From Xenococcaceae cyanobacterium MO_188.B32 (GTDB lineage Bacteria > Cyanobacteriota > Cyanobacteriia > Cyanobacteriales > Xenococcaceae), in NCBI GenBank assembly GCA_030065635.1, contig JASJDJ010000056.1, positions 1 to 29,967 of the forward strand: DNA of 29,967 nucleotides. The letters are read 5' to 3'. Of the stretch, positions 3,753 through 29,967 are shown in pieces. Under the pieces are notes generated by a model, which ran no database searches, had not been told where the DNA came from, and worked only from the letters and a program-made list of their open reading frames with translations. How positions within the stretch are numbered: the first letter of the stretch is position 1; every line of letters starts with the position of its first letter. The position numbers and the translations under genes were made by a program.

Positions 3753-5072
3753 ATGAGTGCCAACATCAATTCCGATACTAACAAGTTAGGCATTTTCTCC
3801 TTAGCAACCTTACTGGTATCCGCTCACTATGGCTTGGGGTTTCTCTTGGGAACTGCCGAACAAGCTAGGCACCAGGGTATACAGGGTAGTCTCTATGCTA
3901 TTTCTATTGGGTTGGGATTTTTGGCTCTGTTAATTTTGGCAAAATTCTACTGGCAGCAAGTAGAACCAATCTGGACTTTATTGGGCAACCGCTATGGTAA
4001 ATCAGTCAAAGTCGGAGTTGGTTTAATGTCCTGGATGTCGTTAATTGGTATTGAGGCGGTACAAATTATCGCAGGGGCAGCAATTCTGGCTGTGGTAGGT
4101 ATCCCTAAAATAACCAGTATGCTGATATTAGCCCTATTATTTTGTTTACTTTCCCTGCTGCCTGTAGAAAAGTTAAGCTGGGTTTTACGGGGCTTATTGT
4201 TGCTCAATATACTGGTTTTAATTTACAGCCTCTGGGCATTACAGGGTTTATCGGTTATGGCACGAGCGCCCGTTGAATTTCTTACTTCCCTGCCTCAAAT
4301 TGCTCCTGGAGATGTCATTGGCATTATCTTCTGCACTATTATGTTAGTGGCGATCGACATGAAGTGTCAGCAATATCTAGTCCGAGCTAAAGATGTGGGT
4401 ACTGCTATCTGGAGTTGCTTTCTTACTGCTGTAACTCTGATTGCTTTAGCTTTACTAGCGGGAACTATGGCGATCGCTGCTCACCAGGCAGGCATTTTAC
4501 CCCCAAATTTAGATGACAAAGAAACGATCCCCTATATTTTAGCTTGGGTGAGCGGTGGCACAGAGAGGTTTTTAGGCATAGTGGCGATTGCTACTTTAGC
4601 AGTTCCCGCCCTGGGTTTGGGTAGTAGCGTGTTGCGGGTACAAACTAGAACTTTTTTCGATCTAGAGATTTTACCTTTCTGGTTGAGCCAGCGCATCTTA
4701 GTAGCAGCTATTAATGTGCTATTAGCCCTAACAATTGCCATCAGAGGCGGAGAAATTGTCGGTTTAATTCTTTTATTTTACGCTGCTTATCTTTCTGCTG
4801 CTTGGATTCCCTTTATTGCCTACCTGCTAGATTATTTTGATGTTTATGCTTTTTCTAATAACAGCGTCAGGTTTTCTTTAATCATAGGCAGCATCTCTGC
4901 TTTAGTCAGTCTCTTACTAATATTAGTTCGACCTGAAGCCGTATTTCTAGGGAGCGATCGCTTAACTATAACAGTCTTAGGTATGGGTATGGCAACTATG
5001 AGTCTTGTAGTTAATGAATTGGTAGAAAAATTACTTCTTGCTCCTGCGGTAAAAAAAGAAACTGACAACTAA
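3753..5072 (+). CDS. Polytopic membrane transporter with 12-13 TM helices, possibly a sodium:solute symporter-like or other secondary carrier.
   Basis: 439-aa ORF, very hydrophobic with regularly spaced helices. The family is not resolvable by eye. Confidence 0.55.
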   Translation: MSANINSDTNKLGIFSLATLLVSAHYGLGFLLGTAEQARHQGIQGSLYAISIGLGFLALLILAKFYWQQVEPIWTLLGNRYGKSVKVGVGLMSWMSLIGIEAVQIIAGAAILAVVGIPKITSMLILALLFCLLSLLPVEKLSWVLRGLLLLNILVLIYSLWALQGLSVMARAPVEFLTSLPQIAPGDVIGIIFCTIMLVAIDMKCQQYLVRAKDVGTAIWSCFLTAVTLIALALLAGTMAIAAHQAGILPPNLDDKETIPYILAWVSGGTERFLGIVAIATLAVPALGLGSSVLRVQTRTFFDLEILPFWLSQRILVAAINVLLALTIAIRGGEIVGLILLFYAAYLSAAWIPFIAYLLDYFDVYAFSNNSVRFSLIIGSISALVSLLLILVRPEAVFLGSDRLTITVLGMGMATMSLVVNELVEKLLLAPAVKKETDN

Positions 5073-5273: not shown

Positions 5274-6497
5274 TTCTAATTGACAATGGATTTCTTGTCG
5301 AACTTTTTTCAGTTCGGAGAGGTTTTCTATTTCTGAAGAGTTAAAACAGGTACGCATTGTAGTTAGAGTTTTTGTGAGTTTTTGAGCGAGTAGTAAGGCT
5401 CGATCGCTCATTTTTTTGATTTGTTGCCGTTCGTGGAGTTTTAAAGCTTTCCCTCTTAAAACCTGAATGGTAATTTCATCTCCCCATTGACTGGGACAAG
5501 CATCAATACGTAACTGTAAACGCTCCTGTTGATAGTGTCTTTCGATCGCTACTTTCTTAGTTTTTTGTAGTGGTTCTAGAGGGAATTTAGCTAAAGTTTT
5601 AATTTCGTTAATTAGGGCTTGAAAAATAGACAGAGATACATCATCTACAGAAGATTGAACAATTCCATCTTGACTCCAGAGGATACGACCTCGATCGCGA
5701 TTTCGCTCTAAATTTAATTTACTTATACTACCATTGAGGATATTGGCGAACAGCTCTTGCCATAATTGTTGAGGAGTCAGCGTTTTGAGAGATTCATGAG
5801 TTAAGCAGTAATTCTCAGATAGTGTCGAGATATCAAAATCTAAAAAGGGGTCTAAATCTAGATTTGGCACCCGTTCGCGATTTTGGTCGGACTCGGATTT
5901 CTTGGACTGACGATTTGGTTCGGTCTGAACTTCGGGTACTAAAGCTAGATCGAGAGTTAAATCGGCAAAAAGTTGTGAGAAAGAATCGGCTTCGGCAGTA
6001 TCTTCCTGAATAGGAGCATAGATAGTAGATTTACTATCTTCGGCTGATATTTCTGGTCTACTTGTCGGGTTTTCTAAGTCTTCGGCTATTATAGTTTCTT
6101 TACTATCAAGGTCATTCTCTTGACTGTTTAGATTAGACTCAAAGGGCATATCGACCACAGTCATTGCTGAATCCTGAGATTTTTTGACAGAAGTTTGAGG
6201 TGAAATATCTGCCTGTGTTTGCTCCATAGTATGGTTCTGTTTGAGATAGGCAGCTAAAACCAACTGATGAGCGTAAGAATCTATACGCTGAATATTAAGA
6301 GTGTAACCTAAAGCACGAACTATTGGACGGACAAAGTCTAAGGCAGTTTTGTCTTCAGGATTGACCATACCCAAGGTCAAACAATCCTGTTCGAGAGATA
6401 AGGGTATAATCTGATACTGTAAACAATGTTCTAAACTCAAAATAGACTGTATTAAATTGATTATTTGTTCATAATCAATATCTGAAGTTTCATTCAT
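5244..6497 (-). CDS. GspE/PilB-like protein with N1 (T2SSE_N) and N2 domains, an acidic linker and no ATPase core.
   Basis: N-terminus IIPLSLEQDCLTLGMVNPEDKTALDFVRPIVRALGYTLNIQRID matches T2SSE_N. C-terminus RILWSQDGIVQ...RLQLRIDACPSQWGDEITIQVLRG resembles the N2 domain of PilB/GspE. No Walker motifs. Confidence 0.5.
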   Translation of the reverse strand: MNETSDIDYEQIINLIQSILSLEHCLQYQIIPLSLEQDCLTLGMVNPEDKTALDFVRPIVRALGYTLNIQRIDSYAHQLVLAAYLKQNHTMEQTQADISPQTSVKKSQDSAMTVVDMPFESNLNSQENDLDSKETIIAEDLENPTSRPEISAEDSKSTIYAPIQEDTAEADSFSQLFADLTLDLALVPEVQTEPNRQSKKSESDQNRERVPNLDLDPFLDFDISTLSENYCLTHESLKTLTPQQLWQELFANILNGSISKLNLERNRDRGRILWSQDGIVQSSVDDVSLSIFQALINEIKTLAKFPLEPLQKTKKVAIERHYQQERLQLRIDACPSQWGDEITIQVLRGKALKLHERQQIKKMSDRALLLAQKLTKTLTTMRTCFNSSEIENLSELKKVRQEIHCQLELIDQLSGRQ

Positions 6498-26019: not shown

Positions 26020-26301
26020 TTACATACTAGAGCGTTTGCGGGTGCGAAACCAGAGCAAAATACCTGTAATTGCTAGCATCATCAGTCCAAAGGCATTTAA
26101 GAAAGGATAAATCATTTCTAGATTAATCCGTCCAAACTTACCTCTATGCCATTCTAATAGCCAAATAAACTCACTACTGTGTCCAGTTAAAACAGCAATT
26201 TGAAATAAAGAACCTGTGAGTAAAGTAAGCAATACAGGCAGAAACACGATCGGCGCGATACGAGAATGTAGTCGGCGCAAATGAACTCTACTAATTGGCA
26301 T
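26020..26301 (-). CDS. Small 2-TM membrane protein (PepSY-TM-helix-like) upstream of the prohibitin gene and co-oriented with it.
   Basis: 93-aa ORF. The LLEWHRGKFG...ITGILLW pattern resembles PepSY-associated TM helices. Confidence 0.45.
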   Translation of the reverse strand: MPISRVHLRRLHSRIAPIVFLPVLLTLLTGSLFQIAVLTGHSSEFIWLLEWHRGKFGRINLEMIYPFLNAFGLMMLAITGILLWFRTRKRSSM

Positions 26302-26314
26302 GAGAATTTGGTAA

Positions 26315-26605
26315 TTAACGCACTCTGGATTTGATCCAAGTCAAGAGAAAAGGAGTAATGATTAAACTAAACAATATTACTTCCCCTGCGATCGTAACCG
26401 CATTTACTGGAGAAGAATTGGTAATTTTTGTAACTGGTTCTGACTGAATTTCAACTGTAGTATTGGTGTCTAGAGAAGGCTGTTGCGGATTCTGTTCTTC
26501 TACAATTGATTCTGTAGACTGGGTTTTCGGGGATTCTTTGATTTCTAATTTTTGCTCGGAATGTCCTTGATGGGCAAGAATGCGTTTATTTAAGCGATCG
26601 TACAT
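26315..26605 (-). CDS. Hypothetical tail-anchored protein: a polar, acidic N-terminal part and a single C-terminal TM helix. It is the first gene of a putative 3-gene operon with the prohibitin.
   Basis: 96-aa ORF, 13 nt upstream of the next gene on the same strand. Confidence 0.4.
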   Translation of the reverse strand: MYDRLNKRILAHQGHSEQKLEIKESPKTQSTESIVEEQNPQQPSLDTNTTVEIQSEPVTKITNSSPVNAVTIAGEVILFSLIITPFLLTWIKSRVR

Positions 26606-26807
26606 AAAATTTTAGATTTAAAATTGGGGGAAAAAAGGTTAATGGTTTGATTATTCTTGCCATTAAACCTTCCCGTTTTAGCATATCCAACCACGCTGTT
26701 GAGATTCTAAAATTGGTACTTAGGGCGATCTTTCTGAGTCAAAATCGGGCTTTGGTTAAGTTCGCGACTCGGTATTAGTTGCTACTCAAACCCCAGAATG
26801 AGGAGTA

Positions 26808-27008
26808 AACTAACATCGATTCAAAGGTTATCCTCAGATTACTTGTCAAAAATTAATCTTGTGTCGCTTACCACCAGAAACCAGTTGGCAAGAACTATCT
26901 AAAGAATTTGGGATTTCTATTTCTACATTGAGTAATTTTTATCAAAGACAATGTATGCCCCGTTTGCGTAATTTTGCTAAATCTGAAGGATATATAGAGG
27001 AGAGATAA
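26808..27008 (+). pseudogene. IS630/Tc1-like transposase N-terminal HTH relic, or a small HTH ORF with a TTG start at 26859. It is about 49-66 codons and lies below the ORF-track cutoff.
   Basis: Translation ...QKLILCRLPPETSWQELSKEFGISISTLSNFYQRQ... fits the IS630 N-terminal pattern RA.IIL....S..EIA..LGVS..TV..W..R. There is no ATG start. Confidence 0.3.
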
Positions 27009-27025
27009 ATTAACCGTAGGGAAAT

Positions 27026-27952
27026 ATGAATAACCTAGAAGAGTATGGCATTGTTTTACCATTGACAGAATTAGCCTATCAGACAGCTAATCAATTCGCT
27101 GCGGAACAAGTTAGTGGGGATAAAGCAGAACGAGTTAGATTAAATACTTTAGCTGTGTGGCTGGTGCGTGACTATCTCGATCTGATGGGAATTCCTACCA
27201 ACATAACTGAAGGAGATAGTTGGAATCCAATTATGCGGATGAGTGCAGATGTGGCAGATTTAGAAGTTACAGGAGTTGGTTATCTAGAATGTATCTCCTG
27301 TCAAACCCCCGCACCTAGCTATGCCGTACCGCCTGAAGTTACTCGCGATCGCCTTGGTTATGTAGTGGTACAAATCGATGATTCTTTGCGAGAAGGTACG
27401 ATCCTCGGTTTTACTGATAAAGTGCAGAATGGCATAATTTCTCAGCTTCAGTCTTGGGATAGTTTACTGGTTCATTTAGATAGACTCAAATCTAGAGTCA
27501 CGGTAGAAGAAACGATTGTTAATTTGAGTCAATGGTTAGAAGGAATAGTTACAAGGGGATGGGAAACAACCAGAGAGTTATTCTTAGGTTCAGAAAATAA
27601 CTTGGCTTTTAGTTTTAGAAGTGCAGAAACTGAGATAGATAATACTTTAAGACTAGGCAAAAGATTAGATTTAGGAGAGGAATTAGGTAGCCTTATTCTA
27701 CTATTAGAAGTAAGAGAGACAGAATCATCAGAAAAAATTATTACCTTGCAACTTTATCCAGTAGAAACCGATCGCTTACCCGAACAAATCCAACTCCAAA
27801 TATTAGACGATTCCGATACAGTTTTGGCAACAGCTATATCTACAGATAGCGATAATTATCTGCAATTACAAATTCATGGGGCACCAGGGGAAAGATTTCG
27901 GGTGGAGATATTAGCAGGAAGTAATGCTTTAAGCGAAGATTTTATAATCTAA
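27026..27952 (+). CDS. DUF1822-family protein. This is a cyanobacterial family that is typically a neighbour of CHAT-domain genes.
   Basis: 308-aa ORF. The assignment rests on overall resemblance to DUF1822 proteins and on the genomic context immediately upstream of a caspase/CHAT-like gene. Confidence 0.45.
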   Translation: MNNLEEYGIVLPLTELAYQTANQFAAEQVSGDKAERVRLNTLAVWLVRDYLDLMGIPTNITEGDSWNPIMRMSADVADLEVTGVGYLECISCQTPAPSYAVPPEVTRDRLGYVVVQIDDSLREGTILGFTDKVQNGIISQLQSWDSLLVHLDRLKSRVTVEETIVNLSQWLEGIVTRGWETTRELFLGSENNLAFSFRSAETEIDNTLRLGKRLDLGEELGSLILLLEVRETESSEKIITLQLYPVETDRLPEQIQLQILDDSDTVLATAISTDSDNYLQLQIHGAPGERFRVEILAGSNALSEDFII

Positions 27953-27959
27953 AATATCT

Positions 27960-28535
27960 ATGCGCTCGATTACTATTAAAAGAATCACCATCGATAATCC
28001 TCTGTATCAAGCAGAAAGAGAACTGCGTAACAAAATTCTACTGCGTCCCATTGGTATTCCTGACTATGGTTGGGAAATGTACGATCGCCAGTCTTGGCAT
28101 TTTGTTGCCTTAAATCGCGATCGCCTAATTGGTTGTGTTGTACTTGTCCCTTTAGATGAAAAAAAATGGCTGGAAAATCTCCATCCAAAACAGACTATTC
28201 GCGTTTTATTACAAACAGACAATATTTTACTGCAAAGATTACCCTGGCATTTGTGGGATTTACTAGAACGTTATCCTCAAGCAGAAATTGCGCTCGCTTC
28301 TTTAGTTTACGATCCGATTCCTTCTATACCAAGAAAAGGCAAAGTCAGGATTTTAGCTATTTTAGGGCATAGTCAAGACATCGATATCGATCGCGATCGC
28401 CTGTTATTATCCCACTTACCAGATACAGAAGTTTGTTTTTTAGTCGAACCAGCTTTACAAGACGTGAGCGATCGCCTATGGTCGGAACATTGGGATATAC
28501 TCTTTTTTGCCGGGCATAGTAAACTCCATTATTAA
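27960..28535 (+). pseudogene. Truncated GNAT-like N-terminal domain plus the first ~60 residues of a caspase/CHAT-like domain. It ends 3 codons after the catalytic-His motif.
   Basis: N-terminus YQAERELRNKILLRPIGIPDYGWEMYDRQSWHFVALNRDRLIGCVVLVPL is GNAT-like. KVRILAILGHSQDIDIDRDRLLLSHLPDTEVCFLVEPALQDVSDRLWSEHWDILFFAGHS matches the start of the cyanobacterial caspase-like domain up to the FFAGHS histidine motif. There is no Cys-motif half. The start codon overlaps the DUF1822 stop region, consistent with operon coupling. Confidence 0.5.
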
Positions 28536-28553
28536 GCAATGTAAAAAAAATAA

Positions 28554-29099
28554 TCAGACAATTAACAAACGCTCGACTGCAATCGCAACATTGGGAAACG
28601 CTACAGGATTGATGATACCTGTAGTTAATTCAACGGAAGTAGCATATCCATTCTCTTGTGGTTGAGTAAACACCCAGACTTTTTTTTCAGACAGATCGAT
28701 GACCCAATATTCGCCAATTCCATTCTGGGAGTAAATCTTCTGTTTTTCGTTTAAATCTTTACTTAAAGTGGTCTTAGATATCTCAACCAACCAGTAAATA
28801 TCTTCAGCATAAGGATGATGAGTAGCATATTTGGTAGAAGGCAAACGTACAACTGCTATATCTGGCTGTGGTTCGGAGTTATTGAGGGTAACAGGTAAAG
28901 CTTGCCTAACCACTACCGAAGCAGTTAATAGTTCTCTGAGATACTCAACCACAGTATGATTAGTATAGCTATGTTCCACCCCCTCTGGACTCATTTCAAT
29001 AATTTCCCCTTCTAGTAATTCAACAGACTTATCTGCCAAAACACCTGAATTAACCAACCGATGCCAATCTAATAATGACCACTTAAAAACGGTTTTCAT
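28554..29099 (-). CDS. Uma2-family (DUF820) PD-(D/E)XK endonuclease.
   Basis: WSLLDWHRLVNSGVL...ELLEGEIIEMSPEGVEHS...PDIAVV...WLVEISKTTLSKDLNEKQKIYSQNGIGEYWVIDL is the classic Uma2 pattern. Confidence 0.8.
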   Translation of the reverse strand: MKTVFKWSLLDWHRLVNSGVLADKSVELLEGEIIEMSPEGVEHSYTNHTVVEYLRELLTASVVVRQALPVTLNNSEPQPDIAVVRLPSTKYATHHPYAEDIYWLVEISKTTLSKDLNEKQKIYSQNGIGEYWVIDLSEKKVWVFTQPQENGYATSVELTTGIINPVAFPNVAIAVERLLIV

Positions 29100-29153
29100 A
29101 ACTTTAATAACAGATATTAATCAGATTTTGTCTATAAAAGAGCAAGGTTAACT

Positions 29154-29912
29154 ATGAAATTCAATTTACGACACATCATACTCTCACTATCGTATTCTCT
29201 AATATTGACAACTTACTTCAGTCAATCAGTCTTAGCTGTCTTAGCTGCTCGAAAAGAGTCTGATGAAAACTCCCAAAAGCAAAAAATTAGTTTTAGTTTA
29301 CCCACCCCTCCCAGTCGGGGAATTCCTTTAGGTCGTCATAAAGGGGGAGGAAGTCGCAGTTCTTGCCAAGATTATCAATCTTTAACTGCTTTAGTTCCTG
29401 TAAATAATCAAATCGTTTGGGGAAAGACTATAGCTACTCATCCTGAGTTTTTATTTTATCTACCTCAAGGATCGGCGCTCGAATTCGTGCTGCAAGATGA
29501 GGCGGATAATTATATCTATCAAACCAATCTGCAAATACCTTCAGATAATCAAGGCATTGTCAGTATTCCTATTCCTCAGACTGCTATATCTTTAGAAACT
29601 AATAAAATTTATCAGTGGACTTTATCCCTCTCCTGCGATATTGATAATCCTGGTGCTTTTGTTTATGTACAAGGTTCGATCGAAAAAGTTGCTTTAGAAC
29701 CCAATATTCAAACTCAACTAGAAACAGTAGATAATACAGAAAAAGCTGTAATCCATGCCAGAGAAGGAATTTGGTACGATGCGATCGCGCTTTTAGCTCA
29801 ATTACGCAGAAATGACCCTAACGATGAGCAAATCAATACTAAGTGCCTAAGCAAAATTAATTGTATATTTTTTACCAAAGTTTATGAGGATATTTTCTAC
29901 AGCTTTTACTAA
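29154..29912 (+). CDS. DUF928-family secreted protein. This cyanobacterial family is frequently co-located with CHAT and DUF1822 genes.
   Basis: N-terminal signal peptide, then PTPPSRGIPLGRHKGGGSRSSC, a Pro-rich glycine motif with a following Cys as in DUF928. 252 aa. Confidence 0.5.
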   Translation: MKFNLRHIILSLSYSLILTTYFSQSVLAVLAARKESDENSQKQKISFSLPTPPSRGIPLGRHKGGGSRSSCQDYQSLTALVPVNNQIVWGKTIATHPEFLFYLPQGSALEFVLQDEADNYIYQTNLQIPSDNQGIVSIPIPQTAISLETNKIYQWTLSLSCDIDNPGAFVYVQGSIEKVALEPNIQTQLETVDNTEKAVIHAREGIWYDAIALLAQLRRNDPNDEQINTKCLSKINCIFFTKVYEDIFYSFY

Positions 29913-29967
29913 GGTAGAATAACTTTCATAATCTTCTGTTTCTAACCATTTGTATTTAATAAATCGC

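Follow-up and report, generated by a model that had tools for sequence, protein, structure and literature searches.

A decaying CHAT-CHASE2 module in a Xenococcaceae cyanobacterium and the chimeric remnant behind an apparent GNAT-caspase fusion

Introduction

Does an open reading frame (ORF) that seems to join an acetyltransferase-like N-terminus to the His half of a caspase/CHAT-type protease represent a new protein architecture, or is it what is left of genes that were once separate? The ORF in question lies near the 3′ end of contig JASJDJ010000056.1, which belongs to the metagenome-assembled genome 'Xenococcaceae cyanobacterium MO_188.B32' (GCA_030065635.1) and was analysed here over its entire length of 29,967 bp (hereafter the window). 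A preliminary description of this DNA had listed four ORFs, all of which are found where it placed them: 27026–27952 (+ strand, 308 aa), 27960–28535 (+, 191 aa), 28554–29099 (−, 181 aa) and 29154–29912 (+, 252 aa). It had read them as a degenerate module of a DUF1822 gene, a GNAT-like domain fused in front of a truncated CHAT-type protease, a Uma2 nuclease gene and a DUF928 gene, and had called the function of the intact module unknown.

That last statement was only partly right, as an EACC2-caspase system with an extracytoplasmic function (ECF) sigma factor and DUF1822 was described in 2021. Kaur, Burroughs, Iyer and Aravind (eLife, PMC8195603) reported proteins with an N-terminal EACC2 domain, a caspase domain and variable C-termini including CHASE2, whose genes are linked to those of an ECF sigma factor and of DUF1822, and proposed that stimulus-induced autoproteolytic activation feeds into the sigma factor. 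The adjacency of CHASE2 and DUF928 genes and the existence of caspase-like-CHASE2 proteins had also been noted in earlier literature. Jiang et al. (2010; PMC2853523) listed cyanobacterial proteins with a caspase-like domain and CHASE2 as 'Chase2 sensor protein' metacaspases; these share with the family treated here the combination of a caspase-like domain and CHASE2 in cyanobacteria, but were catalogued as p20-type metacaspases, whereas the present family matches Pfam CHAT.

The window holds a decaying copy of a module type that is already known. We conclude with high confidence that this copy decayed recently and is very probably non-functional, and that its fusion-like ORF was made by two deletions.

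Results and discussion

Two gene fragments make up the central ORF

Profile searches supported the DUF1822 and DUF928 assignments of the preliminary description (details below), but on the central ORF itself (27960–28535, +) Pfam gave no match even at E ≤ 1, including to CHAT (PF12770) and GNAT (PF00583), and NCBIfam gave no usable match to it, with only a 12.9-bit GNAT trace. The CHAT and GNAT character of this ORF is visible only through homologues. Searching it against 5.8 billion proteins returned relatives in two non-overlapping sets, one of standalone GNATs that cover the first ~35% of the query and one of CHAT-type proteins that cover the last ~63%. The GNAT set comprises acetyltransferases of 144–172 aa, those of 150 aa matching ORF residues 1–67 at 90–97%, while the proteins of the second set, annotated as CHAT-domain or 'Chase2 sensor' proteins, match residues 68–187 at 46–78%. 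By tblastn, residues 1–67 of the GNAT proteins P0007 and P0011 correspond to window positions 27960–28160 at 97%, and residues 104–224 of the CHAT-type protein P0001 correspond to 28158–28520 at 78%. The nucleotide breakpoint between the two parts lies at 28160/28161, where the sequence reads GATGAA|AAAAAATGG and where there is GAA/AAA microhomology between the GNAT sequence ...GATGAAGTA and the CHAT sequence ...AAGGAAAAATGG; the peptide across the junction is ...VPLDEKKWLENL.... The 191-aa product is thus composed of GNAT residues 1–67, CHAT residues ~107–226, the tetrapeptide KLHY and a stop codon.

The GNAT-derived segment (27953–28160, +) consists of 7 bp of native 5′ flank and codons 1–67 of a 150-aa gene, and is 97% identical at the nucleotide level to positions 5535–5736 of the related contig L007, 95% to L008 and 92% to L094. 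The 7-bp flank, AATATCT, stands directly after the DUF1822 stop codon and is the native sequence upstream of the GNAT gene in L008, L009 and L094. The Pfam GNAT domain of P0007 spans residues 36–125 and its acetyl-CoA motif, QGQGIG, lies at about residues 84–89, past the breakpoint. With residues 1–67 of 150 only, the GNAT part of the central ORF stops short of motif A (Q/R-x-x-G-x-G/A) and has none of the C-terminal half of the fold.

The CHAT-derived segment (28161–28520, +) is an internal fragment of 120 codons from an EACC2-CHAT-CHASE2 gene. ORF residues 68–187 align with residues 107–226 of the 771-aa protein of L096 at 92.5% amino acid and 91% nucleotide identity, with both gene copies of L090 at 90–92.5% and with P0001 at 78% (amino acids). 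The fragment carries the sequence LPWHLWDL and the His motif FFAGHS; the catalytic His is present (ILFFAGHS at ORF residues 180–187) and invariant in our homologue alignment (A1), in which the FNSCDG Cys motif of the homologues falls ~50 residues beyond the stop codon of the window. In the fuller homologue P0003 the CHAT Pfam domain covers residues 85–328, and P0003, P0005 and the L090 and L091 genes all match CHAT. The first ~106 CHAT codons (MGKLV..LKLGEG..), present in relatives, are replaced in the window by GNAT codons 1–67, and tblastn found the remainder of the 771-aa L096 protein (EACC2, Cys half, transmembrane segments and CHASE2) nowhere in the 30-kb window. The observation that the central gene stops just past its His motif and lacks the Cys half is hence correct, with no remnant of that half anywhere in the window, although the ORF ends ...ILFFAGHSKLHY*, with four non-homologous codons following GHS where three had been counted.

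The supposed GNAT-like domain in front of a caspase fold is therefore a 67-codon fragment of a separate GNAT gene, joined by an in-frame deletion. Because the acetyl-CoA site of the GNAT and the EACC2 domain, catalytic Cys and sensor of the protease are all absent, the central ORF is a gene remnant, that is, a deletion scar and not a new enzyme. Annotators or surveys of domain architecture could mistake it for a new fusion of GNAT and caspase; the appropriate label is pseudogene remnant.

The intact module in relatives

A genome scan with one genome per species returned at least 596 relatives of the CHAT part, and 80 loci were kept. DUF1822 lies directly upstream of the CHAT-type gene in 58 of 78 loci and DUF928 downstream of it in 59 of 67, so that the order DUF1822, CHAT-type gene, DUF928 proposed in the preliminary description is a real and conserved cyanobacterial arrangement. 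A gene of ~215 aa with a C-terminal helix-turn-helix (HTH) is often found 5′ of DUF1822 in these loci. The CHAT-type gene is 770–838 aa long in 71 of 76 loci; two others measure 916 and 1758 aa and three are truncated. None of the 80 loci has a GNAT at the corresponding place, which argues against a GNAT-caspase fusion as an architecture, and none has a Uma2 gene within 4 kb.

Close relatives of the window retain the intact form, with CHAT-CHASE2 genes of 763–775 aa in L090, L091, L093, L096 and L013. The last of these, from Waterburya, has the canonical set of 215, 329, 775 and 342 aa, and in the L090 and L091 proteins, which also carry CHAT, the Pfam CHASE2 domain is matched at E 6e-61 and 1.9e-60, respectively. 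The order of the intact module is a sigma-like gene, DUF1822, EACC2-CHAT-CHASE2 and DUF928, with Uma2 as an optional member. The window shares the linked DUF1822 gene with the EACC2-caspase systems of Kaur et al., but has only part of the sigma-like gene and nothing of EACC2, the Cys half or CHASE2. A further difference lies in DUF928, a near-constant component in our loci, since a term search of the text of PMC8195603 found no 'DUF928'.

The Uma2 gene and the 3′ end of the CHAT fragment

The Uma2-family (PD-(D/E)xK-type) gene at 28554–29099 (−) is intact, with 181 aa and a match to PF05685 at E 2.9e-31 (108.7 bits against a cutoff of 27, profile positions 11–171 of 172). The preliminary description had it occupying the place of the missing CHAT half. 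L096 and L098 each have an intact 771-aa CHAT-CHASE2 gene, behind which lie a convergent 181-aa Uma2 gene (89% aa identity to that of the window) and a 248-aa DUF928 gene, and the Uma2-DUF928 spacer measures 54 bp in L096, L098 and the window alike. Uma2 remnants are found at the same spot in L090 (147 bp, 78%) and L091. Because its orthologue sits between intact CHAT-CHASE2 and DUF928 genes in L096 and L098, the Uma2 gene is a native neighbour convergent with CHAT-CHASE2, and neither an insertion nor a replacement. The earlier version, in which the halves of the CHAT gene were pushed apart by the insertion of mobile or foreign Uma2 and GNAT genes, could draw on the position of Uma2 directly 3′ of the truncated gene and on the occurrence of the GNAT gene in at least three genomic contexts among relatives, by which it must have moved. 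This version is highly improbable given the orthologous Uma2 with identical spacing to DUF928 beside intact CHAT-CHASE2 genes, the L007 GNAT gene, which was inserted in an intergenic region and not into the CHAT gene, and the missing CHAT parts, which are nowhere in the window and so fit deletion, not displacement.

The extent of the 3′ loss follows from the alignment to L096, which is matched by window positions 28162–28521 at 91% and 28554–29845 at 88%, with ~1.6 kb between these blocks missing in the window. The 33-bp spacer that now separates the CHAT fragment from the Uma2 stop codon (28521–28553, assigned to neither strand) has no blastn match to L096, but a weak and positionally consistent likeness to the gene ends of L096 (TAT...TAAGCAA) and L091 (ATTAAGTAATGTAAC). 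This likeness is suggestive of the native stop-codon region of the CHAT-CHASE2 gene, which the spacer probably holds; if the likeness is real, the 3′ deletion was internal to the CHAT gene, whose own stop codon then terminates the chimera.

Two side observations were made on this gene. The Uma2 protein of the window matches the PADLOC candidate defence family PDC-S03 (E 9e-18). Relatives with 79% identity to it occur in unrelated contexts, where they adjoin genes for carbamoyl-phosphate synthase and ABC permeases.

Further lesions of the locus

The module begins upstream of the region first described, at ~26817, with the remnant of a sigma-like regulator gene (26817–27008, +) that retains the C-terminal HTH part. 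In L007 the corresponding ORF has 216 aa, and its residues 150–210 match the window remnant at 95% by tblastn. Positions 3795–4266 of L007 (472 bp) are absent from the window, whose sigma-like gene has thereby lost its start codon and ~150 N-terminal codons. The breakpoint of this deletion, at 26820/26821, shows AT microhomology. Orthologous genes of 215–220 aa lie 5′ of DUF1822 in L013, L090, L091 and L093.

The DUF928 gene is broken at its 3′ end. The ORF at 29154–29912 matches PF06051 at E 6.9e-51 (173 bits against a cutoff of 26), over profile positions 2–166 of 184 only. Its native part (29154–29841, +) comprises 229 codons with a signal-peptide-like N-terminus and is 83% identical at the amino acid level to residues 1–226 of the 248-aa DUF928 protein of L096. 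The last 23 codons of the ORF, to 29912 (tail CLSKINCIFFTKVYEDIFYSFY), are IS630 sequence, and ~22 native C-terminal codons have been lost. The IS630-family element, of which one end is present (29842–29967, −) and within which the contig ends, was inserted at a TA (29840–29841), and the last 39 codons of its DDE_3 transposase lie at 29966–29847 (−). This end is 80% identical in nucleotides to that of the element by which the CHAT genes of L001 and L002 are truncated, and the transposase encoded in it closes with a peptide, RFIKYKWLE...KYTINFA*, that matches the L001 transposase. Both the L001 and the L002 copy match Pfam DDE_3 (5.5e-35) and HTH_Tnp_IS630, and the L001 copy is inserted at CTAG.

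With a truncated sigma-like gene, a chimeric CHAT remnant and a truncated DUF928 gene, the module is degenerate as first proposed. Because the regulator has no start, the protease has neither nucleophile nor sensor and the secreted partner is truncated, this copy is very probably non-functional. Compared with ordinary pseudogene remnants and microhomology-deletion chimeras, we see likeness in the breakpoints at 2–6-nt microhomologies (GAA/AAA at 28160, AT at 26820), the IS630 insertion at a TA target and the several lesions within one locus, and no difference; the central ORF belongs to this class.

Probable history of the decay

The L007 contig (96% nucleotide identity) is collinear with the window from a Band_7 gene onward and carries in order a complete 216-aa sigma-like gene, DUF1822, an insert of ~110 bp resembling a miniature inverted-repeat transposable element (MITE) and a complete 150-aa GNAT gene. 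Its final 80 bp are the native CHAT leader and start, GTGACAAAGTTAG (V-T-K-L-V), and match L090 and L096. We considered that L007 could be an assembly chimera that switches to the native GNAT locus, and rejected this on account of the CHAT leader and start in its last 80 bp. The GNAT gene followed by the CHAT leader indicates that the GNAT segment was inserted between DUF1822 and a CHAT gene with an intact 5′ end.

The native contexts of the GNAT gene are ROK-GNAT-MatE in L009 and L094 and M48-GNAT-LmeA in L008. Across L007, L008, L009 and L094 this small gene (88–97% nucleotide identity) is thus seen in at least three contexts, namely after DUF1822, with M48 peptidase/LmeA and with ROK/MatE, and homology stops within tens of base pairs of the gene. 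This distribution suggests that the GNAT gene moves as a short cassette. The MITE-like insert of L007 (5419–5534) has no counterpart in the window; it is bounded by the inverted ends AAGTAG...CTACTT and contains a tandem repeat of CTCCCTCTGCT.

Gene content, breakpoints and the comparison with relatives are direct observations, and from them we infer the order of events and the loss of function. The ancestor would have had an intact module with a convergent Uma2 gene between CHAT-CHASE2 and DUF928, as in L096. Before the window and L007 diverged, a GNAT segment of ~530 bp (from −7 to ~+69 bp around the gene) would then have entered the locus directly behind the stop codon of DUF1822 and ahead of the native leader of the CHAT gene. 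Four lesions appear to have followed in the window lineage. A deletion of ~0.73 kb from GNAT codon 68 to CHAT codon ~106, at the GAA/AAA microhomology and in frame by chance, would have removed 252 bp from the GNAT gene, 157 bp of spacer and ~318 bp from the CHAT gene. A second deletion of ~1.6 kb, running from just past the His codon to near the stop of the gene, would account for the loss of the Cys half, the transmembrane segments and CHASE2. The 472-bp deletion would have taken the start and first ~150 codons of the sigma-like gene, and the IS630-family insertion at TA would have severed the last ~22 codons of DUF928. None of the four lesions is present in L007 as far as its contig reaches. 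Overall, the locus reflects ordinary gene decay in an IS-rich (insertion sequence-rich) cyanobacterial genome.

A programmed-excision element was considered in view of the XisH/XisI genes near the DUF928 gene of L091, and was rejected: the locus contains neither such an element nor a recombinase, and the missing sequence is simply gone.

Authenticity of the junctions and weight of the evidence

The same 191-aa ORF and gene order occur at 99.6–100% nucleotide identity in four other contigs, three from the biosamples SAMN14350216, SAMN14350203 and SAMN14350128 and one from the NCBI assembly GCA_013332675.1. In a metagenome-assembled genome whose contig ends in an IS element, and in which a second GNAT copy may exist elsewhere, one could suspect that repeats had led to a false join. 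However, every junction is a clean breakpoint inside unique sequence and all junctions are recovered in the four other contigs; as the same locus is found in no fewer than three further biosamples, the arrangement is genuine, and we regard an artefact of assembly as extremely improbable.

Several points weigh against a fully decayed and non-functional module. Its DUF1822 and Uma2 genes are still intact. The chimeric ORF is open, retains the GNAT start codon and begins 7 bp past DUF1822, with which it may be transcribed. All four lesions postdate the split of the window from L007 (synonymous divergence, dS, ~0.065), and the fragments do not yet show relaxed constraint, with ratios of nonsynonymous to synonymous substitution (dN/dS) of 0.08–0.29; as the lesions are younger than the nearest comparison, these low ratios say nothing on present constraint or loss of function. 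The L007 contig ends 17 bp into the CHAT gene, and the intact CHAT gene ascribed to it is presumed. The sigma-like proteins gave only weak HTH matches in Pfam, no match in a profile search against PDB sequences, and in hhalign against E. coli RpoE an E of 0.049, confined to the sigma-4 HTH. The mechanism offered below for the intact module is drawn by analogy with Kaur et al. and Craspase.

Some of these points would also fit a small protein that is both new and functional, for instance an adaptor or a 'His-only decoy' translated from the GNAT start, whose CHAT surface binds DUF1822 or another partner. Such a protein could be read from an ORF that is in frame across the 5′ junction, may end at a native stop, lies close behind an intact DUF1822 gene and is identical in several samples. 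We nevertheless consider it very unlikely. The chimera holds less than half of each fold, as its GNAT part lacks motif A and the C-terminal half and its CHAT part lacks EACC2 and everything past the His strand; an in-frame 5′ junction is expected by chance in one of three cases; the regulator gene and DUF928 of the same locus are also broken; the architecture occurs in no other locus; and the identity across samples reflects one clonal population, not conservation.

Three independent cases of loss were seen, in the window, L001 and L102. We think it unlikely that the module is lost repeatedly and independently in Xenococcaceae/Pleurocapsales-type populations on account of a cost to the cell, such as a suicide or alarm system would impose, with its loss being selected and not neutral. 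In an equally unlikely variant of this idea, the surviving DUF1822 and the chimeric His-half ORF would act together as a dominant-negative brake on paralogous intact modules.

In L001 (6836–7468 and 8451–9314; GCA_905148015.1), and also in L002, the same module has decayed independently, with a DUF1822 protein that is 70% identical (aa), a sigma-like gene with an in-frame stop (YLK*RLKDF in L001) and a CHAT gene that is cut in L001 at ~aa 260 by the IS630-family element at CTAG. In L102 (921–1021; JGI 3300037308), as well as in L103 and L104 from two other samples, a MITE of ~100 bp lies in a CTAG just past the GHSSS codons. It has perfect 10-bp inverted ends (GGTCTGTCAA...TTGACAGACC) and splits CHAT-CHASE2 into a 251-aa His half and a 527-aa half with Cys and CHASE2, which makes this another break directly past the His motif, by a mechanism different from that of the window.

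A candidate mechanism for the intact module

The remnant itself has little importance beyond annotation. The comparative work gives a clean picture of the intact module, in which DUF928 is near-constant (59 of 67 loci), and the intact module has a testable mechanism resembling Craspase/RpoE signalling. For the type III-E CRISPR Craspase, experiments have established that the CHAT protease Csx29 cuts Csx30, a binding partner of the ECF sigma factor RpoE (PMC9825189, PMC9729208). In both systems the gene of a CHAT-family protease is accompanied by genes for an accessory protein and for a sigma factor, which is a putative one in the intact module, and Craspase provides a precedent for the control of a sigma factor by signal-activated CHAT proteolysis. 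They differ in that the intact module has no Cas7-11 or CRISPR RNA, and its activation would occur via the CHASE2 sensor, not RNA; the analogy concerns mechanism only and not sequence similarity between DUF1822 and Csx30. By this analogy, a periplasmic cue would be sensed by CHASE2, possibly together with the secreted DUF928 protein. Once activated by this sensing, the caspase-like domain in the cytoplasm would cut either itself or a partner, with DUF1822 as a candidate sigma-binding substrate, and cleavage might then free the sigma-like protein for transcription.

The DUF1822 gene and variation around the module

The DUF1822 gene of the window (27026–27952, +) is intact as judged from its PF08852 match, its length and its dN/dS. 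The match, at E 7.6e-52 (177 bits against a cutoff of 25), extends over all 370 profile positions (1–370), the 308-aa length equals that of orthologues with 70–94% identity, and dN/dS is 0.18–0.39. Together with the PF05685 and PF06051 matches given above, this upholds the original DUF1822, Uma2 and DUF928 assignments. The AlphaFold model of the window protein (m9e7399515387; predicted local distance difference test score, pLDDT, 81.7) has an N-terminal alpha/beta domain and a C-terminal immunoglobulin-like (Ig-like) beta-sandwich and contains no TPR-like helical repeats, whereas PMC8195603 calls DUF1822 a TPR protein. A Foldseek search of this model against PDB returned only generic Ig-like sandwich folds and gave no functional lead. 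PADLOC had no match for the DUF1822, CHAT-CHASE2, DUF928 or sigma-like proteins. In the region 26300–29967, an Rfam scan gave no match, and a promoter/terminator scan gave results at or below chance (9 promoter-like sites against 10.5 expected) and is therefore uninformative on expression.

The surroundings of the module vary among relatives. In L090 (150–8521; ERZ893782), two CHAT-CHASE2 genes of ~90% similarity stand inverted on either side of the sigma-like and DUF1822 genes, with IS240 transposase fragments between them, and one of the copies is followed by the Uma2 remnant and DUF928. In L093 (1723–4731), DUF928 is inverted, convergent with CHAT-CHASE2 and overlaps its end. Two small unannotated ORFs of 136 and 129 aa take the position of Uma2 in L091 (11495–13690), where XisH/XisI lie 3′ of DUF928. 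An IS605 OrfB/TnpB-like gene of 432 aa stands directly upstream of CHAT-CHASE2 in L096 (4172–5470), in place of the sigma-like and DUF1822 genes. CHAT proteins of a second kind, TPR-CHAT proteins of 860–940 aa, are encoded a few kilobases from modules in L091 (18427–18895), L093 (9054–11657), L097 (366–3026) and L099 (11637–16546), and their genes adjoin TPS/ShlB two-partner-secretion genes and genes for HemolysinCabind proteins.

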